Positions 3-56,747 of a DNA stretch of 57,181 nt are shown here, piece by piece. Source of the DNA: a virus (taxonomy: Duplodnaviria > Caudoviricetes); the IMG/VR virus record IMGVR_UViG_3300015360_000051, positions 1 through 57,181 of that record. One strand, given 5' to 3'. Numbering within the stretch: position 1 is the first letter of the stretch; each line of letters begins with the position of its first letter. The notes under the pieces were generated by a model. It did no database searches, was not told the origin of the DNA, and saw only the letters and a program-made list of their open reading frames with translations. The translations under genes and the position numbers were made by a program.

Positions 3-245
3 GGTCAACTCCACCGTGACGGTGGATTGCCTGCTGTCGAGTGGCCGGACGGGGAAAATTATTGGGTTGTGAAAGGCAAGCGCCACCGTGATGGAGGCCT
101 GCCTGCCGTCGAGTGGGCGGACGGTAGCGAGTCGTGGTATATCAATGGCAAAGAAGTTCCTCCTCCTCCTCCTCCTCCTCCTCCTTCCTGCGCTGGGTTT
201 ATTGAAATTGAAGGTAAGAAATACAAATTGGTTGAATGCGAATGA
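3..245 (+). CDS. HRDGGLPA beta-hairpin repeat protein (5'-truncated by window edge)
   Basis: Open frame from position 3 (GQLHRDGGLPAVEW...); ends with poly-Pro and the family tail SCAGFIEIEGKKYKLVECE. Confidence 0.85.
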   Translation, partial: GQLHRDGGLPAVEWPDGENYWVVKGKRHRDGGLPAVEWADGSESWYINGKEVPPPPPPPPPSCAGFIEIEGKKYKLVECE

Positions 246-901
246 AAACGTATACAGTAATCATCGATGACCAAGGGACCGTCTACTGGTACAATAAAGA
301 CGGTAAGTATCATCGCGAAGGTGCCCTACCTGCTATCGAACAGGCAGACGGAACCAAGAAATGGTACAAAAACGGTCTCCACCACCGTAATGGTGGCTTG
401 CCTGCCGTCGAGTGGGCAAATGGAGGCAGGGAGTGGTGGGTGGATGGAAATTTTCACCGCGAAGGAGACTTGCCTGCCATCGAATATGCAGACGGAGCCA
501 AGGAGTGGTTTGCGAATGGACTCCTCCATCGTGGCGGAGGCCTGCCCGCCATCGGACTGGCCAGCGGGACCAAGAAATGGTACAAAAACGGCCTTCGCAA
601 TCGTGACGGTGGGTTGCCTGCTATCGAATACGCAGACGGAACCAGGAGCTGGTGGAAAGACGGTCAACTCCATCGAGCAGGAGGGTTGCCTGCTATCGAG
701 TGGTTAGACGGGAAAAGGGAGTGGTTTGTGAACGACCACCGTCATCGTGATGGAGGCCTGCCTGCCGTCGAATACGCAGATGGAAGTAGGGAGTGGTTTG
801 TAAACGGTGAAGAGGTTTTGCCTCCTCCTCCTCCTCCTTCCTGCGCTGGTAAAATTGTTGAAATTGACGGCAAGAAATACAAATTGGTTGAATGCGAATG
901 A
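242..901 (+). CDS. HRDGGLPA repeat protein (MORN-variant/YwqK-like repeats)
   Basis: ATGA overlap with upstream stop; MKTY start, about 7 24-aa repeats, PPSCAGKIVEIDGKKYKLVECE tail. Confidence 0.9.
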   Translation: MKTYTVIIDDQGTVYWYNKDGKYHREGALPAIEQADGTKKWYKNGLHHRNGGLPAVEWANGGREWWVDGNFHREGDLPAIEYADGAKEWFANGLLHRGGGLPAIGLASGTKKWYKNGLRNRDGGLPAIEYADGTRSWWKDGQLHRAGGLPAIEWLDGKREWFVNDHRHRDGGLPAVEYADGSREWFVNGEEVLPPPPPPSCAGKIVEIDGKKYKLVECE

Positions 902-1269
902 AAACGTATAAGGTAACCATGGACGGCGGGGATACCTGCTGGTACAATAAAGACGGTAAGTATCACCGCGAAGGTGCCCTACCTGCTATCGAACAGGCAG
1001 ACGGAACCAAGAAATGGTACAAAAACGGTCTGTATCATCGTGACAACGACCTGCCTGCCGTCGAGTGGGCAAACGGAGCCAAGTTTTGGTACAAAAAAGG
1101 GGAATGCCATCGAGCAGGAGGGTTGCCTGCCATCGAGTTGCCAAACGGGGATAAGTTTTGGATTGTGAACGGGCATCGTCATCGTAACTGGGGGTTGCCT
1201 GCCGTCGAGTACGCAGATGGAAGCAGGGAGTGGTTTTCAAACGGAGAGAGAATAAATCCTCCTTCCTGA
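898..1269 (+). CDS. HRDGGLPA repeat protein, tail cut by TGA at the conserved Cys codon
   Basis: 4 repeats; ends PPS*, and the tail remnant AVKIDGEKYRLECK continues in frame to 1314. Confidence 0.85.
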   Translation: MKTYKVTMDGGDTCWYNKDGKYHREGALPAIEQADGTKKWYKNGLYHRDNDLPAVEWANGAKFWYKKGECHRAGGLPAIELPNGDKFWIVNGHRHRNWGLPAVEYADGSREWFSNGERINPPS

Positions 1270-1310
1270 GCTGTTAAAATTGACGGGGAAAAATACAGAT
1301 TGGAATGCAA

Positions 1311-1964
1311 ATGAAAAAATATACAGTAATCATCGATGAAGGGGATACCTGCTGGTACAGCGAAAAAGGTGTCCTTCACCGTGAAGGAGGCTTGCCTGCT
1401 ATCGAGCAATCGAACGGCCGCAAGGAATGGCGTGTGAATGGTTCCCTCCATCGTGACGGAGGCCTGCCTGCCGTCGAAAAGGCCGATGGAACCAAGCAGT
1501 GGTACGTAGACGGTCAATTTCATCGTGATGGAGACCTGCCTGCTATCGAGTGGGAAAACGGCGGTAAGGAGTGGTACAAAAACGGCCAATTCCACCGTGA
1601 CGACGACCTACCAGCCGTTCTGCGAGCAGATGGGCGCAAGGAATGGTGGATAAATGGTCGTCTCCACCGTGACAACGACTTGCCCGCCCTTGAGTGGTTA
1701 GACGGAGCCAAGTTTTGGTACAAAAAAGGGGTATGCCACCGAGCAGGAGGGTTGCCCGCAATTGAGAAGGCAGACGGGACCAAATACTGGTATGTGAACG
1801 GGCAGCAACATCGTGACGACGACCTACCTGCCGTCGAGTACGCAGATGGAAGTAGGGAGTGGTGGATAAATGGTCGTCTCCATCGTGACGGCGACTTGCC
1901 AGCCATAGAGAAGGCAGACGAAACCAAATACAGATTGGAATACAAATGGAAACGTATAAAGTAA
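1311..1964 (+). CDS. HRDGGLPA repeat protein
   Basis: About 8 repeats; MKKYTVIID start. Confidence 0.9.
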   Translation: MKKYTVIIDEGDTCWYSEKGVLHREGGLPAIEQSNGRKEWRVNGSLHRDGGLPAVEKADGTKQWYVDGQFHRDGDLPAIEWENGGKEWYKNGQFHRDDDLPAVLRADGRKEWWINGRLHRDNDLPALEWLDGAKFWYKKGVCHRAGGLPAIEKADGTKYWYVNGQQHRDDDLPAVEYADGSREWWINGRLHRDGDLPAIEKADETKYRLEYKWKRIK

Positions 1965-2470
1965 CAGTCGATGACCAAGGGAATACCTACTGGTACAATG
2001 AAAAAGGTCTTCTTCATCGTGACGGAGGCCTGCCTGCCGTCGAGTGGGCAACCGGGAAAAAGGAGTGGTGGAAGGATGGTCAACTCCATCGTGAAGGCGG
2101 GTTGCCCGCTATCGAACACCCAGATGGAGGCGAGTCGTGGTTGGCAGGAACCAAGTGTTGGTATCTGAACGGCCTTCTCAACCGTGAAGGGGGGTTGCCT
2201 GCCGTCGAGTACGCAGACGGAAGTAGGGAGTGGTACAAAAACGGTCAGCTCCACCGTGACGGCGACTTGCCAGCCATAGAGAAGGCAGACAAAACCAAAT
2301 ACTGGTTTGTGAACAACCGCCTCCACCGTGAAGGCAACCTGCCCGCCATCGAAAAGGCAAATGGACTCAGGGAGTTTTTTGTAAATGGCAAAGAAGTTTT
2401 CCCTCCTTCCTGCGCTGGTAAAATTGTTGAAATTGACGGCAAGAAATACAAATTGGTTGAATGCAAATGA
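1946..2470 (+). CDS. HRDGGLPA repeat protein
   Basis: METYKVTVD start, about 5 repeats, SCAGKIVEIDGKKYKLVECK tail. Confidence 0.9.
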   Translation: METYKVTVDDQGNTYWYNEKGLLHRDGGLPAVEWATGKKEWWKDGQLHREGGLPAIEHPDGGESWLAGTKCWYLNGLLNREGGLPAVEYADGSREWYKNGQLHRDGDLPAIEKADKTKYWFVNNRLHREGNLPAIEKANGLREFFVNGKEVFPPSCAGKIVEIDGKKYKLVECK

Positions 2471-3027
2471 AAACGTATAAAGTGACCATTGACCAAGGGA
2501 CCACCTGCTGGTACAACGAGGAAGACTGTTTTCATCGTGACGGTGACCTGCCTGCTATTGAACAGGCAGACGGCGGAAAACAGTGGTGGAAAGATGGTCA
2601 GCTCCACCGCGATAACGGACTGCCCGCCATCGAATGGCCGCACGGGACCAAGCAGTGGTACGTGAACGGCAAGCGTTTCCGTGACGGAGACCTGCCTACC
2701 ATCGAGTGGGCCAGTGGACATCTGGAATGGTGGGTGGGTGGTCATTTTAATTACCGTGACGGAGACCTACCTGCCATTAAGCGAGAGACCGGATGTAAGA
2801 CAGGTTATGTAGAAAACCGCCTCCACCGTGGCGGTGGGTTGCCTGCGGTCGTGCGAGAGGACGGACACCGGGAATGGTGGGTAGACGGCCAACTCCATCG
2901 TGACGGTGGCCTGCCCGCTATCGAAGGGATAAACGGGGGAAAGTGGTGGTACGTGAACGGCAAGCGTTACAGTGACGGAAACCTGCCTGCCATCGACGGG
3001 CCAGACGAACACAAGGTGAAGGAATAA
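2467..3027 (+). CDS. HRDGGLPA repeat protein
   Basis: MKTYKVT start via ATGA overlap, about 7 repeats, no family tail. Confidence 0.88.
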   Translation: MKTYKVTIDQGTTCWYNEEDCFHRDGDLPAIEQADGGKQWWKDGQLHRDNGLPAIEWPHGTKQWYVNGKRFRDGDLPTIEWASGHLEWWVGGHFNYRDGDLPAIKRETGCKTGYVENRLHRGGGLPAVVREDGHREWWVDGQLHRDGGLPAIEGINGGKWWYVNGKRYSDGNLPAIDGPDEHKVKE

Positions 3028-3605
3028 TGCAAACGTATAAAGTAACAGTCGATGGCCAAGGGAGTATCCACTGGTATACCAAAGAAGGCTCTCGCCATCG
3101 TGAAGGTGGATTGCCTGCCATCGAACACACAGACGGAGGTAAGGAGTGGTGGAAAAATGGTGGGCGTCACCGTGACGGAGGTCTGCCCGCATCCGAATGG
3201 GCAGACGGTACCAAGGAATGGTGGATGGACGGTAAGCAACACCGCGACGGAGGTTTGCCTGCTGTCGAATGGCCAGACTGTTCTAAACAGTGGTGGGTGG
3301 GCGGAAAACTCCATCGCGACAACGACTTGCCCGCCCTTGAGTGGTTAGAAGGGCATAAGGAGTGGCACGTAAATGGCCAGCGCCATCGTGACAACGACTT
3401 GCCCTCTGTCAAGTTCTCAAACGGGGACAATCATTGGTGGAAAAACGGAAAACGTCATCGTGACGGCGGATTGCCTGCTATTATTCGAGCAGACGGTAGA
3501 CAGTCGTGGTATATTGATGGCAAAGAAGTTTCGCCTCCTCCTCCTTCCTGCGCTGGTAAAATTGTTGAAATTGACGGCAAGAAATACAAATTGGTAAGTA
3601 TGTGA
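3027..3605 (+). CDS. HRDGGLPA repeat protein
   Basis: MQTYKVTVD start, about 6 repeats, family tail. Confidence 0.9.
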   Translation: MQTYKVTVDGQGSIHWYTKEGSRHREGGLPAIEHTDGGKEWWKNGGRHRDGGLPASEWADGTKEWWMDGKQHRDGGLPAVEWPDCSKQWWVGGKLHRDNDLPALEWLEGHKEWHVNGQRHRDNDLPSVKFSNGDNHWWKNGKRHRDGGLPAIIRADGRQSWYIDGKEVSPPPPSCAGKIVEIDGKKYKLVSM

Positions 3606-4276
3606 AAACGTATAAGGTAACCGTGTACGAAATCGGAGATAGTCGTTGGTACAACGAGGATAGTCGCCTCCATCGTGACGACGACTTGCCTGCCGTTGAA
3701 CGACCAGACGGTACCAAAGAGTGGTGGAAGGATGGTCTCCTCCACCGTGAAGGCGGACCTGCTATCGAGCTACTAGACGGTCGTAAGGAGTGGTACAAAA
3801 ACGGGAAACTTTGCCGTGACGACGACTTGCCTGCCGTCGAATATTCGGACGGCTCTAAACAATGGTGGAAAGACGGTCAACTCCACCGCGATGATGATTT
3901 GCCTGCCGCTGAATGGGCGAGTGGGGAAAGGCAGTGGTGGGTGGACGGTAAGCAACACCGCGATGGTAGATTGCCTGCTCGCTCGCGGGCAGACGGAAGC
4001 AAGGAATGGTGGAAAAGGGGGAATCGTCACCGTAATGGTGGCTTGCCTGCCATCGAGTGGGCAAATGGAACTAAAGAGTGGTACAAAAAAGGGAACCTTC
4101 ACCGCGATAAAGACTTGCCTGCCATCGAATATGCAGACGGAACCAAGTTTTGGTATAAAAACGGCCTCCCCCATCGTGACGGAGACCTGCCCGCCGTTGA
4201 ATATCCAAACGGGCATAAGGAATGGTGGGTAGACGGAGACCTCGTAAGGAGTCTTTGTCTCTATAATGAACCATAA
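3602..4276 (+). CDS. HRDGGLPA repeat protein
   Basis: GTG start overlapping upstream TGA; about 8 repeats. Confidence 0.9.
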   Translation: MKTYKVTVYEIGDSRWYNEDSRLHRDDDLPAVERPDGTKEWWKDGLLHREGGPAIELLDGRKEWYKNGKLCRDDDLPAVEYSDGSKQWWKDGQLHRDDDLPAAEWASGERQWWVDGKQHRDGRLPARSRADGSKEWWKRGNRHRNGGLPAIEWANGTKEWYKKGNLHRDKDLPAIEYADGTKFWYKNGLPHRDGDLPAVEYPNGHKEWWVDGDLVRSLCLYNEP

Positions 4277-4296
4277 TTGGTAGTTATGATAGATTT

Positions 4297-4331
4297 ATGA
4301 TACAATACCTCATTAAAACATTCATAGGAGT
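4297..4331 (+). promoter_or_regulatory. Putative extended -10 promoter (TGnTACAAT) and SD (AGGAG) for sbcC
   Basis: tttaTGaTACAAT in the AT-rich intergenic gap; AGGAG 7 nt before GTG 4338. Confidence 0.5.
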
Positions 4332-4337
4332 CGAGCA

Positions 4338-6392
4338 GTGAAAATAGTTCTCAAAACTATCTACGGGCAGGCCTTTCGGTCGTTAGTCGCTCCGTTTTCT
4401 ATTTCAGTCCCTGATTCGGGGCTTACCCTAATTAAGGGCTTGAACCAAGATACTGGAGACAGCTCTGCTTCTGGGAAGTCGTCTCTCGTCCTAGCTATGG
4501 CCCACCTTTTCGGTGGATGCCCTTTTCCTCGAACCGAATTCCAGTCATGGCTAACGGAAGAACCTGCCATGGTAGGAGCAGTGATAAAATGCGGCGACGG
4601 AGACTATACGGTAGAGCGTAGAAGTACAGGGTTGTCGGTACTTCGGCCCGATGGAGTACTAATTAAGGGCAAATCCGCTGAAGCGGAGTTGGACCGATTG
4701 TTCGGGTTAGACGTAAAAATGCGAGCGCTGCTCACCTACAGGGGGCAAGGGCAAGATGGCATTTTTTTGAGTATGTCAGACGCCGAAAAAAAGGAGTTCT
4801 TTGCGCAAACGCTTGGACTCGAACAATATGAGCAATTAGAGTCTCAGGCAGACGAGGCAGCCAAGGTATTGGAGAGGACATTTTTGAGCCTCCAGTCCGT
4901 CATGGAGTACATATCTAAAGACTTCGACCTTGCCTCTACAGAGCTAGTAGAGGCTCGAAAAGCGTCAGACAACATGACGGACGAAAAAATCAAGGAGTTG
5001 GAGACAGTCAAACTCGACCTCGAAAGAAGGGTAAGTAACCTCGCCTCGGAATTTGAAGGAATCAAAGGCTCTATCACTCTAGAGCTGGAGTCGGCAATCG
5101 CAAAAGTTAGGACGAGTATCGAATCGAGCCTAGGAGAAACTTCTACCGTGGTGCCAGAGCTTAGGGCCGCGCTGTCGGTAGCCGAGTCCCGGCTGAACAA
5201 AGTGCTCGAATTTGAAAGGGCTCAAAAGTCCGACCTAGACGGCCAGAGGGCAACGGCTGAGAAAAAAATTCAAGAGATAGACCGTGTCATTATCTGCAAC
5301 GGGGCGGAAATACGTACGAGTAGAAAAAACTTGTTACTCCGTCAGTCCCATCTGGAGGATAGCAAGTGTCCTACTTGTCTACAACAGTGGGCAAATGCTA
5401 AATCGGAACTACTGACAGTCCATGCCAGCCTGGAAGGACTAGGGAAAAAAGAAGAAGAATTAGTACTCTTGCAACAACAAAAAGTAGTGCAAGAATCCCA
5501 GCTTGAGACTGTGCCCACATTCGAGCAACATAAGTTCCACAGCTCCCTATCGATGGAAATATTGCGCCTCCGGGACCAAATAGTCGAGGTAGAAAGCGTA
5601 GGGAAGGAATCAAAAAACAAAGAATTAGCCGAATTAAAAATTCGGGAATCAGACCTAAAACAGGCCGCCGCTACATCCGTGGCCAGCCAGAGGGATGTCT
5701 TCGGCGCAGCGATAACCGAAGTCCGGTGTTTGATTGACCAGACATCTACTCAGATTAACGAAATGCGTCGTTTTTTGCAATCGCTATCGGACAAAAATAG
5801 CAAAGTGACCCAAGTAAGCAAAAAACTTGACACAGCACGTGCCGACAAAATGTCGGCAGAAGTCGAGTACAACAAGGAGAGAGATTTTAAGGCCTTGATT
5901 GGGCGAGAGGGGTTCCTTGGGGTTATTTTTGACGATATATTGGACGAAGTAGCTTCGGCGACGAACAACATCCTATCGATGGTTGCAAACGTCCGTCATG
6001 TAGTTTTTGAATTTGATTCTCAAAAGGAATCAAAATCTGGCAACATCCAAAGGCGCATCACTCCAATAGTAATCGTCGACGGTAGGAAGGTCTCATTTTC
6101 GTCTGGTCTATCGGGAGGAATGCAGTCTGCGGTTAAATTGGCGGTAGACCTAGCCGTAGGAGAGGTCTTGTCCAAGCGCCTGGGGTCCTATCCGGGTTGG
6201 CTAATCCTGGACGAGTCGTTCGATGGCCTTGGGAGAGTTTCAAAAGAAACGTGCATAGAGATGCTGGCCAAATTTGCAGGCGACCGCACAGTATTTGTAA
6301 TCGACCACGCCTCGGAATTTCAGGGTCAATTTTCCCAGATAATATCAGTAACATCTGTTGACGGAAAAAGTGCTGTCAGCTATAGTGGGTGA
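4338..6392 (+). CDS. sbcC: SbcC/Rad50/T4 gp46-like recombination ATPase
   Basis: Walker A SASGKS, coiled coil with CPTC zinc hook, LSGG signature, ILDESFDGL Walker B/D-loop, IDH H-loop. Confidence 0.92.
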   Translation: MKIVLKTIYGQAFRSLVAPFSISVPDSGLTLIKGLNQDTGDSSASGKSSLVLAMAHLFGGCPFPRTEFQSWLTEEPAMVGAVIKCGDGDYTVERRSTGLSVLRPDGVLIKGKSAEAELDRLFGLDVKMRALLTYRGQGQDGIFLSMSDAEKKEFFAQTLGLEQYEQLESQADEAAKVLERTFLSLQSVMEYISKDFDLASTELVEARKASDNMTDEKIKELETVKLDLERRVSNLASEFEGIKGSITLELESAIAKVRTSIESSLGETSTVVPELRAALSVAESRLNKVLEFERAQKSDLDGQRATAEKKIQEIDRVIICNGAEIRTSRKNLLLRQSHLEDSKCPTCLQQWANAKSELLTVHASLEGLGKKEEELVLLQQQKVVQESQLETVPTFEQHKFHSSLSMEILRLRDQIVEVESVGKESKNKELAELKIRESDLKQAAATSVASQRDVFGAAITEVRCLIDQTSTQINEMRRFLQSLSDKNSKVTQVSKKLDTARADKMSAEVEYNKERDFKALIGREGFLGVIFDDILDEVASATNNILSMVANVRHVVFEFDSQKESKSGNIQRRITPIVIVDGRKVSFSSGLSGGMQSAVKLAVDLAVGEVLSKRLGSYPGWLILDESFDGLGRVSKETCIEMLAKFAGDRTVFVIDHASEFQGQFSQIISVTSVDGKSAVSYSG

Positions 6393-42435: not shown

Positions 42436-43371
42436 ATGAAAAAATTGTCAAAATCGCAAATCTCAAAGATTTTGGAGGAGGTCACTAATGACGTGGCCGA
42501 ACTTCTGAAATCAGAGGCTGAAGAGGCTGTTGCGCTCAGTAAAGCAGACCCCGGGAAAGAGACGGCTGCTGAAGCTACCCCCTCCGGTAGCTCGACAGAG
42601 GAGTCTTCGGCTCCTCCGCCTGAAATGTCCGCTAGCCCTCCGGCTGGCGAACCTGATGGTGGTGGTCTAGAAGGCGGTCCAGAAGGTAGTCCAGAAGGCA
42701 GTCCAGAAGGTAGTCCAGAAGGTAGTCCAGAAGGCGGTCCAGAAGGCGGTCCAGAAGGCGGTCCAGAAGGTGCAGACGGCGGTCAGGAAATGTCGCCCGA
42801 AGCTCTCCAGGGCGAATATTCGCAACTGCCCATCGAAGAACTCAAGATGCATTTTTTGGCGGCGAAAGCCGCTCTCGAAGCTGCATTGCAGGGTGGTGGT
42901 GGTGGTGCAGGGGCTCCAGAAGCTTCGGCTCCTCCGGGTGCTCCTCCGGGACCTCCGGGTGCTCCTCCGGGTGCTCCTCCGGGTGCTCCTCCGGTTCCAG
43001 GCACGGACAAGCTGGAACTCAAAGAGGTTAAAAACTCTTTGGCGGACCTCAAGAAAAACGTATCAGCTAAGGACGCAGAAATCCTGGAGTTGCGGAACAA
43101 ACTCGACCAGTTAGTTACTGGATTTGAGGGAATTCTGACTCGTCAACAGGTTTTGCGCAAGTCGGCAAGAGATTTGTCCTCATTCGCACCTGCGAATGGT
43201 GATGATACTGTCGTCGACATCTCTAATCTGTCCAAAAAAGAAATCGTAGCGAAGCTTAGTGAGGTCACTGCTTCGACCAACAAACTAACTAAATCAGACC
43301 GTGACCTCATCAACCGCTTCGTGGTATCCGATTCAGTGCCCGCTGAGTCCGTAGCCAAGTTCTGCAAGTAA
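42436..43371 (+). CDS. Probable scaffold protein
   Basis: Acidic Pro/Gly-rich low complexity plus coiled coil, many LxKS/A motifs, directly before MCP. Confidence 0.7.
   Translation: MKKLSKSQISKILEEVTNDVAELLKSEAEEAVALSKADPGKETAAEATPSGSSTEESSAPPPEMSASPPAGEPDGGGLEGGPEGSPEGSPEGSPEGSPEGGPEGGPEGGPEGADGGQEMSPEALQGEYSQLPIEELKMHFLAAKAALEAALQGGGGGAGAPEASAPPGAPPGPPGAPPGAPPGAPPVPGTDKLELKEVKNSLADLKKNVSAKDAEILELRNKLDQLVTGFEGILTRQQVLRKSARDLSSFAPANGDDTVVDISNLSKKEIVAKLSEVTASTNKLTKSDRDLINRFVVSDSVPAESVAKFCK
42669..42770 (+). repeat. 12-bp in-frame tandem repeat (EG[G/S]P)n
   Basis: ccagaaggyrgt about x8; second 12-bp (PPGA)n run at about 42930-42992. Confidence 0.9.
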
Positions 43372-44813: not shown

Positions 44814-44858
44814 GAATGGCCCGGTCGCCCTTTTGGATGACCGGGCCATTCTCTTTTT
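44814..44858 (+). terminator. Rho-independent terminator after MCP
   Basis: gaatggcccggtc/gaccgggccattc 13-bp stem plus T tract, between convergent genes. Confidence 0.88.
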
Positions 44859-45153
44859 ATTCGGTTTTGGCTGTTGCGGAATACGAACGATAGCTACGAA
44901 TCACTGAGTAGTGTTGTTCGAGTGACCGGTTTTTTGAATGGACCACCTGATATTCGATGTTACGCGCTTTCAGCGTAGTGAAAAGGGTGGTCACGTCAGA
45001 GTCCTCTTCGAGATAGACCGTCTTCCCCTTGACGTAGGAATAATGGGTGATGGCGTCAGCAATCTCTAACTTGTGTAAGAGAGCGAGCTTGACGGCCAAC
45101 CAGCCGTGGCCTGGGTCAGAATAGAACTTGAACTTGAGAATTTTGTTGTCCAT
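44857..45153 (-). CDS. Small phage hypothetical protein
   Basis: SDPGHGWL...YLEEDSD; leaderless promoter cassette directly upstream. Confidence 0.8.
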   Translation of the reverse strand: MDNKILKFKFYSDPGHGWLAVKLALLHKLEIADAITHYSYVKGKTVYLEEDSDVTTLFTTLKARNIEYQVVHSKNRSLEQHYSVIRSYRSYSATAKTE

Positions 45154-45228: not shown

Positions 45229-45522
45229 TCAACGGCGGCTATCGTTCACCCACCACTGCTTTTCCCCACTTGCCCATTCGACGGCGGGCAGGCCACCATC
45301 ACGGTGACGCTGGCCACCCACCCACCATTCCTTGCCGCCGTCTGCGTATTCGACGGCGGGAAGGTCACCATCACGATGGAGAACACCGTCCACCCACCAC
45401 GACCTGTCCCCGTCTGCCCATTCGACGGCAGGCAACCCCCCTTCACGATGTAGGCGTCCCTCTTTGTTACGCCAACGGCTGGTTCCGTCTTGGACTGTCT
45501 TGTTTCCTGTGTTGTTGTCCAT
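45229..45522 (-). CDS. HRDGGLPA repeat protein
   Basis: MDNNTGNKTV start, 3 repeats. Confidence 0.85.
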   Translation of the reverse strand: MDNNTGNKTVQDGTSRWRNKEGRLHREGGLPAVEWADGDRSWWVDGVLHRDGDLPAVEYADGGKEWWVGGQRHRDGGLPAVEWASGEKQWWVNDSRR

Positions 45523-45540
45523 TTTTACTCAACCTGGTGG

Positions 45541-45849
45541 TTATTCGCCGTCCCGGACACGGAGTTTTCCGTACACGTACCACTCCTTGCGCCCGCTTGC
45601 CCACTCGACAGCAGGCAAGCCTCCGTCGCGGTGTTGCTGGCCGTCCACCCACCATTCCTTGCCGCTTGCCCGTTCAACGGCAGGCAACCCTCCACCACGG
45701 TGGAGGCGTCCGTTTACGTACCACTCTTTGGTACCGTCTGCCTGTTCGAGGGCGGGCAATCCACCATCACGGTGGAGAAGACCTTGTTTGTTGAGCCAGA
45801 AGACGGTTCTGTCTGCTTCAACTACTTTTCTTTCTTCGTTGTTGTCCAT
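45541..45849 (-). CDS. HRDGGLPA repeat protein
   Basis: 3 repeats; leaderless promoter. Confidence 0.85.
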   Translation of the reverse strand: MDNNEERKVVEADRTVFWLNKQGLLHRDGGLPALEQADGTKEWYVNGRLHRGGGLPAVERASGKEWWVDGQQHRDGGLPAVEWASGRKEWYVYGKLRVRDGE

Positions 45850-45915
45850 TTATTTAATCTACAGGGAATTGGATTGAATGTCAATCAATTAATTCACCTA
45901 GACAGTGGTAGGTGA
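45839..45915 (-). promoter_or_regulatory. 77-bp stem-loop + promoter cassette, copy 2
   Basis: Identical to 45143-45219. Confidence 0.85.
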
Positions 45916-45918
45916 GTC

Positions 45919-46293
45919 TCATCTACGGTGGTGGACACCGTTTGTCCACCATTCCTTATGACTCGTTATCCGCTCAACGGCAGGCAGGCCGCCACCACGA
46001 TGAAGGCGGTCGTTTATCCACCACTCTTTGGTACCGTCCACTTGCTCAATGGCAGGCAATCCACCGTCACGATGGCGAACACCGTTTGTCCACCACTCCC
46101 TATCTCCGTCTTTCCACTCGATGGCAGGCAAGTCTTTATCTCGATGGAGACTCCCCTTTTTATACCAAAACCTATCCCCATTTACCCACTCGACAGCGGG
46201 CAAGTCTCCTTCGCGATGGATAAGACCTTTTTCGTTATGCCAACGGACAGTTCCGTCTCGGTCGACTGTCTTGTTTCCTGTGTCGTTGTCCAT
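45919..46293 (-). CDS. HRDGGLPA repeat protein
   Basis: MDNDTGNKTV start, 4 repeats; 5' region near-identical to that of 45229-45522. Confidence 0.85.
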   Translation of the reverse strand: MDNDTGNKTVDRDGTVRWHNEKGLIHREGDLPAVEWVNGDRFWYKKGSLHRDKDLPAIEWKDGDREWWTNGVRHRDGGLPAIEQVDGTKEWWINDRLHRGGGLPAVERITSHKEWWTNGVHHRR

Positions 46294-46315
46294 TTTTTAC
46301 TCAACCTGGTGGTTA

Positions 46316-46642
46316 TTATTCTGAACTGGTAAGGTGTCTTCCGTACCTGTACCACTCTTTACGTCCGTCCGCTCGCACAACGGCAGGCAATCCACCATCA
46401 CGATGGCGCTCGTTGTCCACCCACCAGCTCTTGCTCCCGTCTATGTGTTCGACGGCAGGCAAGCCGCCATCGCGGTGTTGCTTCCCATTCGCGTGCCACT
46501 GCTTGCTTCCGTCTCTCCATTCGATGGAAGGGCGACCTCCCTCACTGTGGAGTTTTCCCTCTTCATTAAAATAACGAATATTTCCTTTTTTGTCTACTAC
46601 TTTATTCCTAGAGTCTACTACTTTGCTCCCGATATCATCCAT
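46316..46642 (-). CDS. HRDGGLPA repeat protein
   Basis: MDDI start 6 nt after a -10 box; 3 repeats. Confidence 0.85.
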   Translation of the reverse strand: MDDIGSKVVDSRNKVVDKKGNIRYFNEEGKLHSEGGRPSIEWRDGSKQWHANGKQHRDGGLPAVEHIDGSKSWWVDNERHRDGGLPAVVRADGRKEWYRYGRHLTSSE

Positions 46643-46683
46643 CACAGCATCCTACAAGGAATTGGATTAAATGTCAATGAATT
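46630..46683 (-). promoter_or_regulatory. 54-bp promoter + start cassette, copy A
   Basis: TTGACA-17-TAGGAT-6-ATGGATGATATCG; identical to 47081-47134. Confidence 0.85.
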
Positions 46684-46703
46684 CAGTGTCCATCTATTTG
46701 TCT

Positions 46704-47093
46704 CTACTCAGAGACTTCTTTTCCGTCCACCCACCACTCCTTGAGTCCATTAGACCACTCAACGGCAGGCAGTCCGCCGCCACGATGACGCTGGCCGTTT
46801 TTCCACCAAGACGCATCGCTATTTTCGTTCCAACCGGCGGGCTCGTCCCAAACGGCGGGCTCGTCGCCGTCACGGTGGAGACGACCGTTTACGTGCCACT
46901 CCTTATGTCCGTCTAACAACGAGACGGCTGGCAAGTCGCCGTCACGGTGGAGCTGACCGTTTTTATACCATTGCTTGCCTCCGTCTCTCCACTCGATGGC
47001 GGGACGACCTCCCTCACGGTGGAGTTTCCCGTCTTGGTTAAAATAACGAGTATTCCCTATAGGGTCTACTACTTTGTTTTCGATATCATCCAT
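46704..47093 (-). CDS. HRDGGLPA repeat protein
   Basis: MDDI start, 4 repeats. Confidence 0.85.
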   Translation of the reverse strand: MDDIENKVVDPIGNTRYFNQDGKLHREGGRPAIEWRDGGKQWYKNGQLHRDGDLPAVSLLDGHKEWHVNGRLHRDGDEPAVWDEPAGWNENSDASWWKNGQRHRGGGLPAVEWSNGLKEWWVDGKEVSE

Positions 47094-47134
47094 CACAGCA
47101 TCCTACAAGGAATTGGATTAAATGTCAATGAATT
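47081..47134 (-). promoter_or_regulatory. 54-bp promoter + start cassette, copy B
   Basis: Identical to 46630-46683. Confidence 0.85.
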
Positions 47135-47137
47135 AAC

Positions 47138-47605
47138 TCACCCGTCTCTGCTGACCCATGTATTGCCGCAAGTCTGAGAATGACCCCCAAACCCCTGAGC
47201 GTTTCCGATGGTCCATTCGTTTTCGGATATCTTGGTAGTGCCAGAAACTCTAGAGCTGTTAAAAATCTGAGCGTTCCCGTAAACCCGAGCACTGCCGCAG
47301 ACCCTAGCCTCACCATACACCCAGGCGTTGCCGTAAATCGCTGAAGACCCAAAAATTAAAGTATCCCCATAAATCTGTGCACTACCAAAAATCTGAGCAT
47401 TCTCGGAGACCCAGGCGTTGCCAAAAATCTGAGCACGCTCGTAGACCCAGACGTTTTGGCAGACCCTGGCGTTGCCAAAAATCTGAGAATGAGGCCCTAC
47501 CCAGACAGAGTCTGAAACGAAAGCGGTATCGGCCACCCAACCTTTGCCGTTAGGATGCTGGTGAATAGATACTGGCCCATTGCCATCTTGGAAGTCTTTT
47601 TTCAT
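47138..47605 (-). CDS. Hexapeptide-repeat left-handed beta-helix protein
   Basis: Tandem [GE][NS]A[QWR][IV][FY] hexapeptides. Confidence 0.85.
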   Translation of the reverse strand: MKKDFQDGNGPVSIHQHPNGKGWVADTAFVSDSVWVGPHSQIFGNARVCQNVWVYERAQIFGNAWVSENAQIFGSAQIYGDTLIFGSSAIYGNAWVYGEARVCGSARVYGNAQIFNSSRVSGTTKISENEWTIGNAQGFGGHSQTCGNTWVSRDG

Positions 47606-50543: not shown

Positions 50544-53500
50544 ATGGCAACACCTGAGGGCGAAGCTACACATTCTGCTGAGGTTGCCCTAATCCAGGTA
50601 ACCAACGCACAGGGGCATCTGCTCCTGGGCAAACGTAACGATACCGGTAAATGGACGTTGCCTGGTGGTCACCTAGAGCACGGAGAAAGTCCAGAGAGAG
50701 GGGCTATTAGGGAGCTGTTCGAGGAGACCGGGTTGAAGCCTGAGTCTCTAACCTATGCCAGGAAGTTCAGCCCGCACGATGGGTTAACTATTCACTGTTT
50801 CACAGCTCTCTGTCTCGGAGACCCTCATGGGGACAATGACCCAGACAACGAATGCGACAAATGGGAATGGGTGGACGTTAGTGACGGCATTCCTGAGGAT
50901 ATGTGGGAGAACCTAGCGGGGCCCAAAAATGGAAATGTGGTTAAGCAGGTGTTCGACCAGAGTTTGACCAAAATGGACATTAAAGAGGTACACGATTACA
51001 ATTCGTCAATAGACGACCACGTTCCTCCGCCAACTTCCACTAATTTTCCCAGGCCTGTAAAGGATAATCCCCATCAGCATCAAATTCCTGCCAAACCTAT
51101 GGCTAAGGTCGTCCACAAGACTTCGCTAGCACAACTGAATTTATACGACCGGGAATTTCAGGGATATATCCCCGCTCCCAGCCTTGCTATCGTCCATCAG
51201 GACAAGGATTTTGACTCGTTCGGTGACGTGACCCTCATCGCTCATCCTAGGATGGTCGACCCTAGGGTAACGAACACCCATGTCTATTCGGGGGACTCCT
51301 ACTCTCCACGGAGCGGCAAGCCGATATGGCGCTCTGGACTCGAAGCTAATAATAGCTTTGCGTCAGAGGTTCACAACGACCCGACTGCTAGCGATACAGA
51401 CCGAGGAACTAGTAGATATTCAAAAGAATCGTTCGCGAGAGAGTTTGGGGAGTATTTTAATTCTCACCATTCGGTCTCCGTCTTCCACCAAGGACTATTA
51501 GCTGTCCCTGGTTCCTCCAGCGGCGATGTACCAAGAATGGTGGTCGATAGGTTCTATGCCGAACACCCCCTCGTGGGTTTTGGAGAGAGAGGACTAAATC
51601 ACCAATACTTATTTGATAACTGGCTCTCTCAGAAAATGAAGGCTAGCGGATGGCAGCGAAAATTTTCATCCTCGTCGAGTGACGGAGCCGTTGAAGACTC
51701 TGACCCCGAGACAATCCTACGCAGAATGAATAGACGCCCCACGTTCGGCGGAGAAAGTCACCTAACCCACGCCTCCGCCCGCAAGAACCCAACAATGCAA
51801 GGCATCTTGTTGGAGACAAAGAAGTTTCGCTCCTTGAACGAGATAAAGGCACATACCGGTCAATTAATTGGGCATTCCGGTATTGAGGATAATGAAGAAA
51901 AAATAAACGAACAAACACAAACTCTGAGAGATTCTCTAACTGCTGACGCCTCCAAAAGGGGCAGCACTGTCACTGACGAAGACATTGACCATGTCGTCAG
52001 AGGGGTCCACTCAGGCAAATATCGTACCGCCAAAAAAGCAGTTCAGGCGATTCTGGGAGGGGATGTAGAATCAAAATTCCCAGAAGTCAGCGGCCGAATT
52101 GAAGAGATTATCAAGCTCTCTACTAAGAGAGGTCAAGAATATTTTGAGGCCAAGCCCAGGCGCTTGGTTCATTTGTCCGAGTTTCACACCGCCGTTGTCC
52201 CTCCGACCATATTTCCGGAACAGCTCGCGACCCTCAAAAGGTACGGGCTCAATGTCGTCAAACAGGACGCAAACCCCAGCCAGGTAACCAATATAGCAAG
52301 AGACCACAACTTGCTGCTGTCAGAGCATAGCATAGACGAACTCCAGTTCGCCGAACTTCAAAAATCTGATGACATGGATATTGAGTGGCTAGCGAAAGCA
52401 ATGACCACGGAAGACGAAGTGTCGACCTTGCTCCAGCACCACGACCCGATGGAACGCAGGCTCGCGCTGCGGCTCAATACGGCCACCCCTTCCCACATCC
52501 GCCAAGGGGCCTTCGACGCCGATGAAGAAGTCTGGAAGGAGGCACTCGCCCATCCAGACTCCGCAATCGCTAAGAGGGCTGTGCTTGCCTGTACCTCGAA
52601 CGACAAAGGGGAGGACCTGTGGCCCCAACAGCAGCACTTACTAGCAGATGACAACCTGCCAGCCGAGGCCCTGGATACCCTATACTCGACCATCCTACAT
52701 GATAACGACATCGGAGATAGTTCGAGGAAGGCGCGACTAAATGAGATAGCGGGTCACCCAAACTTCGATTTCCCTACAGAGAACCCCGACCAGTCCCTCG
52801 CAAAGCATTGGGGGCACGACCTGATTGAAGGTGCGCATAATATTCACCCTCCTACGGATTCTCTCGCCCCTAATCAGGCTCATAACATTGACCGTCATGC
52901 AGCCTACAAAAACGATTTCGATTCCCACCAACATCTAGTACCGGTCAAAAATGACAAGTTAGCACAGCTAGGCGAAAACAAAAAAGTCATTCACAAGACG
53001 AAGGTTTCGAAATATATGGTCAAGCCGTGGACTGCTGGAGAGAGCATCTCCCAACAGGTATTCCACGCCGCCGGAATGGGACACATCCATCAAAAAAGTT
53101 TCACCACCGAATACGTGGACAAAAAAACGGGTAAGGGTACCCAGGCCACGGTCATCAAGATAGAGCCTTTTCACTCAACAATCGCCAGCCTGAATGGGTG
53201 GGGCGGAACTGGACGAGTTAAACACCCCCTCCCAGACGAGCCGAGGCACGACCCGGATGATTTCATTAAAGGAAACATCTTAGACGCCGCTCTAGGACAG
53301 AATGACCGACATTTAAACAATATCATGATAGATGATATCTCGGGGAAGCCTCTATATATAGATAGCGACGCGTGCGGGAAGTCCATCTATGGGAATTGGG
53401 GGGAATTTAAGGACTCAGTAGAGTTTTCTAATTTTCTCAGCCACAGTAGAAGCCATCTCGACGGACACCTAGCAAAACAATTACTGGGAGACAGAAGCGA

Positions 53501-56500
53501 GGAAGCGTTTCGCCGAAAGGTCCACAGACTGGTACAAACGTGGTGGCCTACAGTGTCAGAGCCAATTAAAGCGAAGTTGGGCGAACTAGGCGACCGAGGC
53601 CGCAGTTCTGTCCTAGAGAATATCCACAACAACGTAAGCCAACTTGACAGACTTGTCCGTGGAAAAAGCGAAGACGGCTCAGAATCTGTTAACGACGAAA
53701 ACGGCGCCCGAAAGGAATGGCGCAACGTCGAAGGTCTCATTCATCGTGATGGTGACTTGCCTGCTATTATTCGCCAAAATGGCGAGAATGCCTATTACAA
53801 AAACGGTAAACGCCACCGTGACGGTGACCTTCCTGCTATCTTGGGCGGCCCTGACGGAGGGGTAACGTATTACAAAAACGGCTTCCGCCATCGTGACGGC
53901 GACCAGCCAGCCCACAAAGACAAAGATGCGGAAGCGCATTACCGAGATGGCAAGCTCCATCGTGACGGAGGCCTGCCTGCCGTTGTGCACGCCAACGGGC
54001 GCAAGGAGTGGTACGAAGGCGGGCTTCATCACCGTGACGGAGACCTGCCCGCTATCGAATACGAAGACGGAGGTAAGGAATACCTATATCGTGGAGTGAG
54101 AGGCCGCAACGGCGAGGACAAGCCATCCATTATCCGTAATGGAACTGAAACCTACTATATGGATGACCTTATTCATCGCATGAATGACTTGCCCTCCGTA
54201 ATAGGCCCTGGGCGGGAGGAATATTTTCGACTTGGTCGTCCCCACCGTGACGGCGGCCTGCCTGCCGTCGTCGTGGACAAACCAGGAGGGGTCAAAGAAC
54301 ATCATTATTTTCTGAATGGAGTCCCGTACCGCCCGCTCGGACTACCCACCTATGATGACGGAGCAGGATATCAGGAGTGGCGGAGTGCGGACGGGCTTCT
54401 CCACCGTCTCGATGGCCCCGCTGTAATCAAGGGCGCCGTTGGAGAACCTTACGAGGAGCATTATTACAAGGATGGCAAGCTCCATCGTGAGGATGGCCCC
54501 GCTATATTCAGACGCGACGGGGGTCACGAATTCTACGAGAAAGGCGTCCAGGTATTTCAAACTGCGGATGGATACAGAACTCTCAGTAGTGGGCTAGGAG
54601 GCATCAAGCTGAAAGAGCTACGAAACAAATCCGGGGACCTCCACAGCAAAAACGACCTTCCGGCCTATATTAAGATAAGGGAGGGCGAGAGAGGGAAGGA
54701 AAGAGTTATTAGAAAAGAGTGGCACAAAGAAGGGAAGGTCCATCGTGATGGAGACCTGCCCGCCATCGAGTTGTCAGACGGAACCAAGTTTTGGTACAAA
54801 GACGGCCTCCCCCATCGTGACGGTGGATTGCCTGCCATCGAGAGACTGGACGGCAGTAAAGAATGGCACGTAAACGGTAAGCGCCATCGTGATAACGACT
54901 TGCCCGCCATCGAACAGGCAGACGGGAGCAAGGAATGGTTTGTAAATGGTAAGCGCCATCGTGACGGTGATTTGCCTGCCGTTGAATGGCAGGACGGGCA
55001 TAAGGCGTGGTATGAAAACGGTCAGCCCCACCGTGACGGCGGCCTGCCTGCGGTCGAGTGGGCAGACGGGCATAAGGAATGGAAGGTAAACGGTTATCTC
55101 CATCGTGACGGAGACCTGCCTGCCATCGAACGGCCAGACGGGGCCAGGCAGTGGTACGTACGCGGGAAACGCCATCGTGACAACGACTTGCCCGCAATCG
55201 AATGGCCAGACGGAACCAGGTCGTGGTGGGTGGACGGCCAGCATTACCGTGACGGAGGACTACCCACTATTGAACGCGCAGGAATACCAGGAGTTAAAAA
55301 AGCCCTCGAAAGCGGCTGGGCGGATAACCTCCACAGCAAACCAGACCAGATGCCCACCGTTTTTAGGGCTAATGATGCTGTAAAAAAATACAAACAATTT
55401 GAAGGAACCCACAAGACGTTTGAGACTCACGAACCCGTACAGCCGTCTAAAGCTCTTTTCCAGAAGCATGTCCAAGACTCTCCGCATCTAATACCAACCC
55501 CTCCCCCTACATCCAATATGGGAGGGGTTGAGAATAAACACGTTCACGAATTCGAGGACGATTCAGGGGCATACCATAGATTCCTAATTAAAGGGTACCA
55601 CAGCAACTACGCCATGCACAGCGGGTTTGGGGAGCTAATGTCACAGGACGCCTACCACGCCGGAAACATTGGACACCTGCATCAAAAATCCTTCGCCACC
55701 ACTGACGACCAAGGCAATCCGGCATTGGTAATTCATATGGACCATAGCAGGAATGTAGGGGTGGATGATTGGCCCGAACATGCGGAAGACTATCATAAAA
55801 TCGCAATGATGGACTTTTTGTTGCAAAATGGTGACAGACATGGTGATAATATAATGTCTCCCCCTCTGGCGATAGACAATGCTGCGTCGAGTTACATGGA
55901 CTTTTACGGGGGGAACGTACCTCCTACCCAAGAAGAACTGTGGAAGGATTCAGACGCCCTAGAAAGGATTCCAAACAACCTAGGGACCAAACACTCTCCT
56001 GGAATTAAGGAGTGGTGGAATCAAAATAAGGTAGCCATTAAGGATTCAGTTCATAGGAATTTCCGAAAAGTGCTCCCCGACGACGATGGAGACGTAAATC
56101 ATGCGCACAGTCGGTTAGATGCCCGATTTGATGACCTGGACAGTTCGGTTAACTTTAAGTTCGGTCAACACACCCGCGTTTCCGAAGGAGTCACAAACAG
56201 CCTAAACGAGCACGGCCTCGCGCACAGTTTTGACGACCAGCCCGCCCTGATAATGAGGGGCGGCGGTCTCAAAATCTGGATGAAAAATGGGGTCAAACAT
56301 CGTGACGGTGGCTTGCCTGCATATGTTGAGGACGACGGATACGAAATCCACTACAAAGACGGCAAAGTCCATCGTGACGGAGGCCTGCCCGCCATCGAAT
56401 ACGCAGACGGTGGTAAGGAGTGGCACGTAAACGGAAAAATCCACCGCGATAACGGACTGCCCGCCGTCGAACGGGCGGACGGGACCAAGGAGTGGTGGGA

Positions 56501-56747
56501 AAATGGTAAGCGCCACCGTTACGACGGCCTGCCTGCCGTTGTGCGAGCGGACGGACACAAGGAATGGCACTGGAACGGGCACCTGCATCGTAACAACGAC
56601 TTGCCCGCAATCGAATGGACAAGCGGAGGTCGGTCGTATTACAAGGACGGGAAACTCCATCGAGACGGTGGCCAGCCCGCCAAGGAACAACCAAACGGTA
56701 ACCATGAGTGGTGGGTGGACGGAAAAAACTATCCCAAACCACAGTGA
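50544..56747 (+). CDS. 2067-aa polyvalent protein: Nudix, ART-like, HEAT-like, kinase, repeats, kinase, repeats
   Basis: Nudix box GGHLEHGESPERGAIRELFEETG; kinases DRHLNN..ID and DRHGDN..IDN; two HRDGGLPA blocks. Confidence 0.9.
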   Translation: MATPEGEATHSAEVALIQVTNAQGHLLLGKRNDTGKWTLPGGHLEHGESPERGAIRELFEETGLKPESLTYARKFSPHDGLTIHCFTALCLGDPHGDNDPDNECDKWEWVDVSDGIPEDMWENLAGPKNGNVVKQVFDQSLTKMDIKEVHDYNSSIDDHVPPPTSTNFPRPVKDNPHQHQIPAKPMAKVVHKTSLAQLNLYDREFQGYIPAPSLAIVHQDKDFDSFGDVTLIAHPRMVDPRVTNTHVYSGDSYSPRSGKPIWRSGLEANNSFASEVHNDPTASDTDRGTSRYSKESFAREFGEYFNSHHSVSVFHQGLLAVPGSSSGDVPRMVVDRFYAEHPLVGFGERGLNHQYLFDNWLSQKMKASGWQRKFSSSSSDGAVEDSDPETILRRMNRRPTFGGESHLTHASARKNPTMQGILLETKKFRSLNEIKAHTGQLIGHSGIEDNEEKINEQTQTLRDSLTADASKRGSTVTDEDIDHVVRGVHSGKYRTAKKAVQAILGGDVESKFPEVSGRIEEIIKLSTKRGQEYFEAKPRRLVHLSEFHTAVVPPTIFPEQLATLKRYGLNVVKQDANPSQVTNIARDHNLLLSEHSIDELQFAELQKSDDMDIEWLAKAMTTEDEVSTLLQHHDPMERRLALRLNTATPSHIRQGAFDADEEVWKEALAHPDSAIAKRAVLACTSNDKGEDLWPQQQHLLADDNLPAEALDTLYSTILHDNDIGDSSRKARLNEIAGHPNFDFPTENPDQSLAKHWGHDLIEGAHNIHPPTDSLAPNQAHNIDRHAAYKNDFDSHQHLVPVKNDKLAQLGENKKVIHKTKVSKYMVKPWTAGESISQQVFHAAGMGHIHQKSFTTEYVDKKTGKGTQATVIKIEPFHSTIASLNGWGGTGRVKHPLPDEPRHDPDDFIKGNILDAALGQNDRHLNNIMIDDISGKPLYIDSDACGKSIYGNWGEFKDSVEFSNFLSHSRSHLDGHLAKQLLGDRSEEAFRRKVHRLVQTWWPTVSEPIKAKLGELGDRGRSSVLENIHNNVSQLDRLVRGKSEDGSESVNDENGARKEWRNVEGLIHRDGDLPAIIRQNGENAYYKNGKRHRDGDLPAILGGPDGGVTYYKNGFRHRDGDQPAHKDKDAEAHYRDGKLHRDGGLPAVVHANGRKEWYEGGLHHRDGDLPAIEYEDGGKEYLYRGVRGRNGEDKPSIIRNGTETYYMDDLIHRMNDLPSVIGPGREEYFRLGRPHRDGGLPAVVVDKPGGVKEHHYFLNGVPYRPLGLPTYDDGAGYQEWRSADGLLHRLDGPAVIKGAVGEPYEEHYYKDGKLHREDGPAIFRRDGGHEFYEKGVQVFQTADGYRTLSSGLGGIKLKELRNKSGDLHSKNDLPAYIKIREGERGKERVIRKEWHKEGKVHRDGDLPAIELSDGTKFWYKDGLPHRDGGLPAIERLDGSKEWHVNGKRHRDNDLPAIEQADGSKEWFVNGKRHRDGDLPAVEWQDGHKAWYENGQPHRDGGLPAVEWADGHKEWKVNGYLHRDGDLPAIERPDGARQWYVRGKRHRDNDLPAIEWPDGTRSWWVDGQHYRDGGLPTIERAGIPGVKKALESGWADNLHSKPDQMPTVFRANDAVKKYKQFEGTHKTFETHEPVQPSKALFQKHVQDSPHLIPTPPPTSNMGGVENKHVHEFEDDSGAYHRFLIKGYHSNYAMHSGFGELMSQDAYHAGNIGHLHQKSFATTDDQGNPALVIHMDHSRNVGVDDWPEHAEDYHKIAMMDFLLQNGDRHGDNIMSPPLAIDNAASSYMDFYGGNVPPTQEELWKDSDALERIPNNLGTKHSPGIKEWWNQNKVAIKDSVHRNFRKVLPDDDGDVNHAHSRLDARFDDLDSSVNFKFGQHTRVSEGVTNSLNEHGLAHSFDDQPALIMRGGGLKIWMKNGVKHRDGGLPAYVEDDGYEIHYKDGKVHRDGGLPAIEYADGGKEWHVNGKIHRDNGLPAVERADGTKEWWENGKRHRYDGLPAVVRADGHKEWHWNGHLHRNNDLPAIEWTSGGRSYYKDGKLHRDGGQPAKEQPNGNHEWWVDGKNYPKPQ

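Follow-up and report, generated by a model that had tools for sequence, protein, structure and literature searches.

The stretch of DNA analysed here (henceforth the window) is an entire single contig of 57,181 bp, IMG/VR record IMGVR_UViG_3300015360_000051, which on the strength of its matches to terminase, portal, head and replication genes is assigned to a tailed phage. Our subject is a family of genes in this phage that are built from a repeated unit of 24 amino acids (aa), or 72 nucleotides (nt). Units were recovered in all the places where an earlier note on the sequence had put them, namely in eight plus-strand genes at 3-4276 (g01 to g08, cluster A), in two isolated genes of the replication module (r09 and r10), in five minus-strand genes (m11 to m15, cluster C), and in a protein of 2067 aa that combines repeats with NUDIX, PBECR5 and kinase-like domains; one repeat family does extend over four regions of the genome. 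By sum of coordinates the repeat-bearing sequence amounts to ~8.6 kb, ~15% of the 57.2-kb genome. The positions of all these features are collected in Table 1.

Table 1. Coordinates of the repeat genes, the promoter elements of cluster C, the large repeat-bearing protein with its domains, and the split polymerase.
Feature	Position	Strand	Description
g01	3-245	+	MORN-like; 2 units, nine-proline linker, C-terminal KYKLVE tail; cut by contig start
g02	236-901	+	221 aa; MKTYxV cap, 7 units, poly-Pro linker, KYKLVE tail
g03	892-1269	+	125 aa; 4 units
g04	1305-1964	+	219 aa; 8 units, MORN-like fold
g05	1946-2470	+	174 aa; 5 units and tail
g06	2461-3027	+	188 aa; 6-7 units, no tail
g07	3027-3605	+	192 aa; 6 units and tail
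g08	3602-4276	+	224 aa; 7-8 units
DnaE-type DNA polymerase III alpha	12929-14695 and 14696-17188	+	two abutting reading frames, 588 and 830 aa
r09	20876-21166	+	96 aa; 2 units; between UvsX-like recombinase and primase, overlapping both
r10	22185-22613	+	142 aa; 4 units, cluster-A type cap and tail; between primase and DnaB-like helicase
m11-m15	45229-47096	-	five genes, 97-130 aa; 3-4 units each, MDN/MDD-type cap, no tail
29-nt promoter element (x4)	47128-47100, 46677-46649, 45884-45856, 45188-45160	-	sigma-70-like: TTGACA, 17-nt spacer, TAGGAT/TAGATT
Polyvalent-type protein	50544-56747	+	2067 aa
NUDIX domain	50577-50897	+	Pfam, 3.2e-21
PBECR5 domain	51162-51377	+	Pfam, 2.1e-7
Kinase-like domain 1	~52932-53393	+	PI3_PI4_kinase-like
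Repeat block D1	~53700-54554	+	degenerate, irregular spacing
Repeat block D2	54642-55316	+	7 regular 72-nt units and irregular flanking ones
Kinase-like domain 2	~55485-55910	+	PI3_PI4_kinase-like
Repeat block D3	56223-56729	+	6-7 units, at the C-terminus

A six-frame regular-expression scan, together with a scan within the genes, located 92 anchors of the form H-R-x3-L-P-A, 83 of which belong to canonical units of 24 aa (72 nt) with the consensus HRDGGLPAVEWADGTKEWWVNGKL. Among these 83 units several columns are nearly invariant (P7 in 83, R2 in 82, L6 in 79, H1 and G14 in 78, W18 and A8 in 77), and G22 (71) and E10 (69) are also conserved. The scaffold of fixed positions that the earlier note had proposed is confirmed by these counts, but its statement that the remaining positions vary freely has to be modified: columns 11, 12, 15, 17, 19, 20, 21, 23 and 24 are variable (2.1-3.15 bits), yet biased, with A at column 12 in 43 of the 83 units and W, Y or F at column 19 in 67. 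Terminator-like hairpins (ACGGT, 7 nt, ACCGT, T-run) lie antisense to unit junctions at 372-388, 1582-1598 and 2241-2257 (all on the minus strand) and at 46944-46960 (plus strand). They arise from the N-G ... H-R codons, are located within a 36-nt tract shared between loci that is described below, and are probably a by-product of coding.

Complete open reading frames (ORFs) with start codons are found for 14 of the 15 small genes, the exception being the truncated g01. Two types of gene follow the loci. In type A an MKTYKVTV-type cap is common to the cluster-A genes and r10; genes of type C have an MDN/MDD cap, no tail, and their own duplicated promoters. The start of r09 is MMDEN, and this gene has no tail. 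The products of g01, g02, g05, g07 and r10 end with a linker of 2-9 prolines followed by a tail, xIEIDGKKYKLVE, which AlphaFold models in g07 as a β-hairpin of lower confidence; the tail was otherwise seen only in L002, one of several loci with tandem repeat genes discussed below; all 120 listed homologues of the repeat lack it. The promoter cassette of cluster C has been duplicated four times, and its copies stand upstream of m15, m14, m12 and the gene at 44857-45153. Since these sigma-70-like elements each end 6 nt before an ATG, they suggest that cluster C is transcribed by the host RNA polymerase, possibly into leaderless mRNAs. When cluster A was scanned for a sigma-70-like promoter, none stood out. 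The gene at 44857-45153, behind the fourth promoter copy, has no repeats and starts with MDN like the repeat genes. Directly upstream of the minus-strand repeat cluster lies a gene for a β-solenoid repeat protein of YdcK type (47138-47605, minus strand, E 1.2e-15).

In the 2067-aa protein, kinase-like domain 1 is followed by blocks D1 and D2, and kinase-like domain 2 by block D3. Repeats are thus present in this protein as the earlier note had it, in three blocks and not two, D1 being degenerate and D2 and D3 regular. The two kinase-like domains are related to each other (28% identity, E 2e-11) and both match the catalytic loop of phosphatidylinositol 3- and 4-kinases (PI3/PI4 kinases); a PDB sequence search with the kinase-like region gave 0 matches. 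At E<=1e-3 the domain has 185 representatives, mostly in proteins of 600-2500 aa, and of the 7 best homologues that were scanned, 6 combine NUDIX with kinase-like sequence. A hidden Markov model (HMM) of the repeat unit recognized all 120 positive controls and 0 of the 150 listed homologues of the kinase domain; because none of the latter carries units, the blocks appear to have been added in the lineage of this phage to an older NUDIX/kinase protein. Among the homologues, P0121-P0129 are proteins of 900-1550 aa with NUDIX and one to three PI3/PI4-kinase-like stretches, together with weak Fam20C and HipA_2 matches, and this family of NUDIX plus kinase-like proteins appears to be undescribed as such.

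With at least two unrelated effector domains on one phage polypeptide, the 2067-aa protein has the composition of a polyvalent protein; a MuF/minor-head-like gene is found at 34400-35206, 15 kb from its ORF. The polyvalent proteins of Iyer et al. 2017 (PMC5512222) include PBECR domains and, in those bearing kinases, small nearby 'cassette' ORFs. The protein studied here is likewise a very large phage protein that strings together effector domains, in this case NUDIX, PBECR5 and two kinase-like domains; the kinases described in that paper are of the Ser/Thr/Tyr type without a C-lobe, whereas the present domains match the PI3/PI4-kinase loop. 'MORN' occurs 0 times in the main text of that paper, whose supplementary domain architectures may list similar NUDIX/kinase arrangements.

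Structure prediction, one of the checks proposed in the earlier note, gave a confident elongated all-β array of MORN-like appearance. The AlphaFold models of g04 and g07 (predicted local distance difference test, pLDDT, 91.8 and 92.7) have the same strand pattern in each 24 residues, with β-hairpins of ~23 residues predicted to form one elongated antiparallel sheet. In a Foldseek search of the PDB with g04 all the top 8 matches were MORN1 structures, from Trypanosoma, Toxoplasma and Plasmodium (best 6t68, E 5e-7, template modelling (TM) score 0.49/0.53; also 6t69 and 6t4d), followed by junctophilins (7rw4, 7rxq), radial-spoke proteins (RSP1/RSP10) and MORN4 (6jle); the matches to eukaryotic MORN proteins (PF02493) ranged from E 5e-7 to 2e-3 with probability 1.00. 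On the predicted models, the repeat is a MORN-like β-hairpin array, for which Pfam has no model of its own. It resembles eukaryotic MORN arrays in its period (23-24 residues), in having one β-hairpin per unit and in its elongated single β-sheet; it differs from them in its motif (H-R-D-G-x-L-P-A ... G-x-K-x-W ... N-G), in its low identity to the solved chains (12-20%), and in occurring as short stand-alone proteins. In sequence searches the repeat genes fall in unnamed PHROGs only, no NCBIfam family was found for 5 repeat proteins, a PDB sequence search with a repeat protein gave nothing useful (best E 1), and a weak Tcp10_C match was seen in Pfam. The sole Pfam match on the repeat that reached its cut-off, DUF834, was judged spurious.

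How did one such unit come to occupy four regions? In a self-comparison with blastn, the paralogues are 65-76% identical with collinear shifts, the maximum being 82% over 123-156 nt, and over all units the mean nucleotide identity is 61%; by these values the paralogues are old. The closest local pairs of units are g02.1-g03.1 (94%) and g03.2-g04.5 (88%), and g02, g03 and g04 are collinear over their last three units. These comparisons describe the cluster-A genes as probable collinear duplicates with gains and losses of units, and the locus-specific subfamilies, whose N-terminal caps follow the loci, likewise point to local duplication. Between loci the closest units are g08.6 and unit 10 of the 2067-aa protein (big.10) and g06.2 and big.21, at 83% each; with its flanks, g08 unit 6 is 82% identical over 123 nt to positions 54714-54836. 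A 47-mer that the earlier note had found shared by cluster A and the 2067-aa protein is present at 4136-4182 and 54777-54823, its copies differing at both degenerate positions.

The same note had pointed to a tract of 36 nt that is identical in three loci. It occurs exactly in g05 (2240-2275, plus strand), r09 (20930-20965, plus strand) and m15 (46926-46961, minus strand), with 0 matches in 100 shuffles. We also calculated a more demanding null from 300 shuffles that kept every amino acid and the codon pool of each column. In this null the longest tract common to at least three loci was 28 nt, against the 36 nt observed, so that the tract exceeds all 300 shuffles and some sharing between loci goes beyond codon usage; the flanks of the three copies are strongly diverged. 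For two loci, a common tract of at least 39 nt (observed, 39) was reached in 2 of the 300 shuffles, and all other exact matches between loci are <=29 nt and lie within the shuffle nulls. Cross-locus shared 24-mers number 43, compared with 7.1 +/- 5.7 in the shuffles.

The earlier note had read this sharing as a pool of cassettes shuffled across the whole genome, a claim of which the shared tract supports one part (300 of 300 shuffles), while the 61% unit identity and the remaining matches do not support the rest. In its strongest form the idea is that of an actively recombining pool, in which gene conversion creates binder specificities and the small genes are a donor library for the blocks of the 2067-aa protein. 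Besides the tract with its diverged flanks, such a pool would account for the two cross-locus pairs of 83% identity and the 82% match over 123 nt, and for blocks that, being absent from the listed kinase homologues, were acquired within the lineage; the phage has a UvsX-like recombinase and SbcCD-like nucleases, and Iyer et al. 2017 (PMC5512222) put forward a comparable idea of cassettes for polyvalent proteins with kinases. Frequent conversion would homogenize the copies, which are as divergent as the mean identity of 61% and a synonymous divergence (pS, the proportion of synonymous differences) of 0.67 indicate, and a single tract stands clearly above the null. Nor do the small genes have the form of silent donors, that is, of promoterless or truncated cassettes highly similar to an expressed gene, because they are intact and separately translated ORFs, some of those in cluster C have promoter-like copies, and their units reach at most 83% identity to the blocks. 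The ratio of nonsynonymous to synonymous differences (pN/pS) is 0.9-1.08 in the variable columns and in no column clearly >1, so that positive selection, for which a per-position check had been suggested, did not emerge; with synonymous sites saturated, the ratio is uninformative on this point. An active mechanism of cassette shuffling with a donor library is weakly supported, and we consider it unlikely.

Natural variation was read from assembled contigs (Logan) of four public metagenome runs, X1 to X4. The array does vary between natural samples. In three of the four runs (X2, X3 and X4) a contig joint connects position 745 to 1310, with a side of 46 and a depth like that of the flanking phage contig, and across 901-1200 the contig depth falls to 2.7 (X3) or 0 (X4); on the evidence of this joint and this loss of depth, a form of the phage without g03 and without the tail of g02 appears to exist. 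The joint was the only one used of 54, most of which were discounted as cross-matches to paralogues or other organisms, with short sides of 20-33 nt. The 40 listed single-letter differences fall mostly in short clusters, at six sites, and were tested as seven variant forms. At site A six letters within nine are changed (HRGGG to HRDND), which leaves 1 mismatch from three paralogous units; at site B nine letters are changed, and the variant has 3 mismatches from g07, where the reference has 11 and random controls have 5 or more. In all, substitutions towards paralogous units were seen at 2 of the 6 sites and in 3 of the 7 variant forms. The changes at sites A and B fit occasional templated patches, and these multi-nucleotide differences are a further point that a recombining pool would explain. 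Between samples the changes are of all kinds and not adenine-specific, so they lack the signature of a diversity-generating retroelement, and no reverse transcriptase family was found among the ORFs that were scanned.

The same contigs bear on the possibility that the arrays are misassembled, which the earlier note had named, or are collapsed repeats, and that the genes are not real. Logan contigs break the array into pieces of 230-700 nt, none of the listed ones spanning it, so that the order of the genes rests on the assembly of the window itself; and long-read work has noted that short-read assemblies recover too few MORN-repeat genes (PMC9238414). Yet contigs of X1 and X2 cover all 30 bins of 1-4500, several pieces with 0 differences, and such exact contigs come from independent runs. 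Paralogues differ by 24-35%, well above the level that confuses an assembler, none of the 16 reading frames is interrupted, they have 1327 homologues among database proteins, and similar arrays exist in unrelated contigs. Misassembly is not borne out, and an artefact of this kind is very improbable.

Taken together, these observations are in our view best described as the lineage-specific expansion, in an uncultured tailed phage of microbial mats, of a family of MORN-like β-hairpin repeats, mainly by duplication and with rare exchange, whose function would be binding; we regard this description as reasonably probable. The family would have grown mainly by tandem duplication of genes and by gain and loss of whole units through unequal crossing-over. 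A gene of cluster-A type, r10, would have been dispersed into the replication module, and blocks of repeats inserted into the large protein. Rare ectopic exchange of short patches could then have left the 36-nt tract in three loci and the patchy differences between populations. Several results weigh against this description. The Pfam MORN model, PF02493, was matched by none of 7 window proteins (hmmscan, E<=0.1), and MORN_2 (PF07661) was matched below threshold by only 1 of the 7 (15.1 bits compared with a cut-off of 29.6, E 0.026). The nearest neighbour of a unit lies in another locus for 39 of the 83 units, compared with a random expectation of 65%; since this is close to random, the history of single units is largely erased, and duplication and exchange are not cleanly separable at this level. 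The excess of shared 24-mers is also predicted by plain common descent and does not discriminate. Four of the six substitution sites are without a donor in this genome, and the variants could be chimeric contigs or come from a co-occurring relative.

The repeat is not confined to this phage. Among 4305 scored candidates (one length band), 1327 proteins match it at E<=1e-3. A search of Atlas gave 30 look-alike clusters, the listed ones of which are viral, mostly from Uroviricota. In deposited phage records the repeat was found in only 5 of 50,697, from three phages. Tandem multi-gene arrays occur also in L001 (a metagenome-assembled genome, MAG, of a giant virus), L002, L003/L005 and L007, and judging from these matches many uncultured phages and giant viruses have the repeat, often in tandem gene arrays. 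L001 to L003 share no other gene with the window. Elsewhere the arrays are fused to RING, F-box-like heads, DUF7666, ankyrin, and a C-terminal domain that also occurs in an ankyrin gene, a behaviour that by analogy may be that of a generic binding module.

In L001 (6511-12628) at least five genes with the HRDGGLPA repeat and one ankyrin gene share a C-terminal domain (FCQKM...YFWWIQICYD...), which suggests a common adaptor placed on different types of repeat. In L007 (4200-9571) ~30 units of a 23-residue HREDGPA variant occupy several tandem genes; this 14-kb contig was binned as a Flavobacteriaceae MAG and may be a fragment of a phage or prophage.

Giant viruses (Pandoravirus and amoebal viruses) have multigene families of MORN, ankyrin and F-box proteins (PMC5753266, PMC6418002), with which the genes described here have in common the tandem arrays of many paralogous repeat-protein genes; the very HRDGGLPA repeat seen here recurs in at least five neighbouring genes of L001. 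The setting differs, this being a 57-kb tailed phage of a prokaryote, and where the giant-virus versions have F-box, RING or C-terminal domains, its genes have the proline linker and KYKLVE tail. A MORN-like family of a kind known from giant viruses is here found in a phage, expanded and grafted onto a polyvalent NUDIX/kinase protein; our literature search met with no account of MORN-like gene families in phages.

As to function, the solved complexes with Myo3a and CaV1.1 are (by entry titles) among the Foldseek matches, and in these complexes the MORN array is a protein-binding surface. Together with the fusions to partner domains in other viruses, the MORN-like fold of the predicted models makes plausible the comparison of the repeats with LRR or ankyrin binders that the earlier note had offered. 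We thus envisage the arrays as protein-binding surfaces: the small proteins could act early, binding proteins of the host (or of the phage) in stoichiometric amounts or serving as adaptors for them, and the blocks of the 2067-aa protein could tether or aim its kinase domains.

Two other roles can be weighed against binding of this kind. YwqK is the immunity protein of the toxin YwqJ, and the small proteins could be MORN-variant antitoxins of YwqK type, each neutralizing a host toxin domain (of abortive-infection or polymorphic-toxin effectors), in which case the number of paralogues would reflect the toxins met. Some homologues do carry the name or PF07661, 3 of the 120 listed ones being called 'antitoxin component YwqK' by the Joint Genome Institute (JGI), and a bacterial cluster of the YwqK family is among the structural neighbours in Atlas (TM 0.78 by query). 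The similarity to the bacterial MORN variant (PF07661 MORN_2, COG2849) is weak in sequence, the single MORN_2 match and NCBIfam falling short as described above, and the role would leave the blocks inside the kinase protein unexplained. No toxin domain was found among the scanned neighbours of any of the 15 genes, which are repeat genes, replication genes and the YdcK-like solenoid. An immunity role of this sort seems to us unlikely.

In the second alternative the arrays associate with themselves or bind membrane, and organize compartments for replication or assembly instead of being aimed at host defence. Membrane binding was the role first proposed for MORN, the solved MORN1 proteins are dimers, and MORN1 proteins are the best structural matches here; r09 and r10 show translational coupling with the genes for recombinase, primase and helicase. 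Plant phosphatidylinositol phosphate (PIP) kinases reportedly carry MORN domains that affect their localization (Ma et al. 2006), a parallel to the layout of kinase-like domain and MORN-like repeat in the 2067-aa protein. Fifteen diverged paralogues exceed the needs of a scaffold, no transmembrane or lipid-binding feature was seen, and we hold this role to be somewhat less likely still.

If the arrays are binders, exchange of patches together with indels of units or genes, seen as differences between natural mat populations, could also re-assort their surfaces among the 15 small genes, presumed to be early, and the targeting blocks of a NUDIX/RNase/double-kinase effector that would be injected, giving a self-renewing repertoire of MORN-like binders. 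We think this doubtful. Should it be true, the stand-alone genes would inhibit host proteins and also supply the donor sequence by which the kinase is re-aimed, and the system would be the counterpart, in a virus of prokaryotes, of the ankyrin and F-box host-range families of large eukaryotic viruses. Multigene families of repeat proteins are a recognized tool of host manipulation in giant eukaryotic viruses, and here a family of this sort takes up ~8.6 kb of a small phage genome of 57.2 kb. To identify the partners of a single paralogue would be enough to annotate a large part of viral dark matter; it would also put to the test whether modular binders serve phages against the defences of bacteria in the way that ankyrin, F-box and MORN proteins serve poxviruses and pandoraviruses.

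The remainder of the genome was surveyed with PHROG and Pfam scans. Genes for replication and repair comprise an SbcC-like nuclease, a ribonucleotide reductase and the split DnaE-type polymerase (Table 1), whose nearest phage record is Myxococcus phage Mx1 (37.8% identity); further matches are to an exonuclease, the UvsX-like recombinase, primase, DnaB-like helicase, head protease, SbcD-like nuclease, terminase, portal, MuF-like head protein and RNA ligase. When 19.8 kb of the sequence were compared with phage records by megablast, there were zero matches. Searches for related loci with DnaE, the SbcC-like protein and P0121 in viral contigs, and with the SbcC-like protein and P0121 in metagenome contigs, found nothing. 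Of the sampled words of the first 10 kb of the phage, 72-94% are present in five public microbial-mat metagenome runs; the listed sequencing runs that match these 10 kb include no RNA run. A search for overlap between the contig ends, in the range of 10-300 nt, found none. When the end of the contig (57120-57181) is joined to 1-245 the reading frame is kept and an ATG is supplied for the truncated g01, and because of this join the contig is probably a complete circular or permuted genome.

Three further genes have unusual features. In the late region, an ORF of 1217 aa (37164-40817, plus strand) has a C-terminal GGDEF-type domain (aa 1042-1145, E 2.3e-14) and is without matches over the remainder. 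The ORF that follows the head protease (25267-26286, plus strand), in the position expected of the capsid gene, matches class I/II aminotransferase (E 4.3e-19) and alliinase_C. Finally, collagen-like 12-nt tandem repeats are found at 42664-42770 (8.9 copies) and 42928-42995 (5.8 copies) within the ORF at 42337-43371 (plus strand), which probably encodes a fibre protein.

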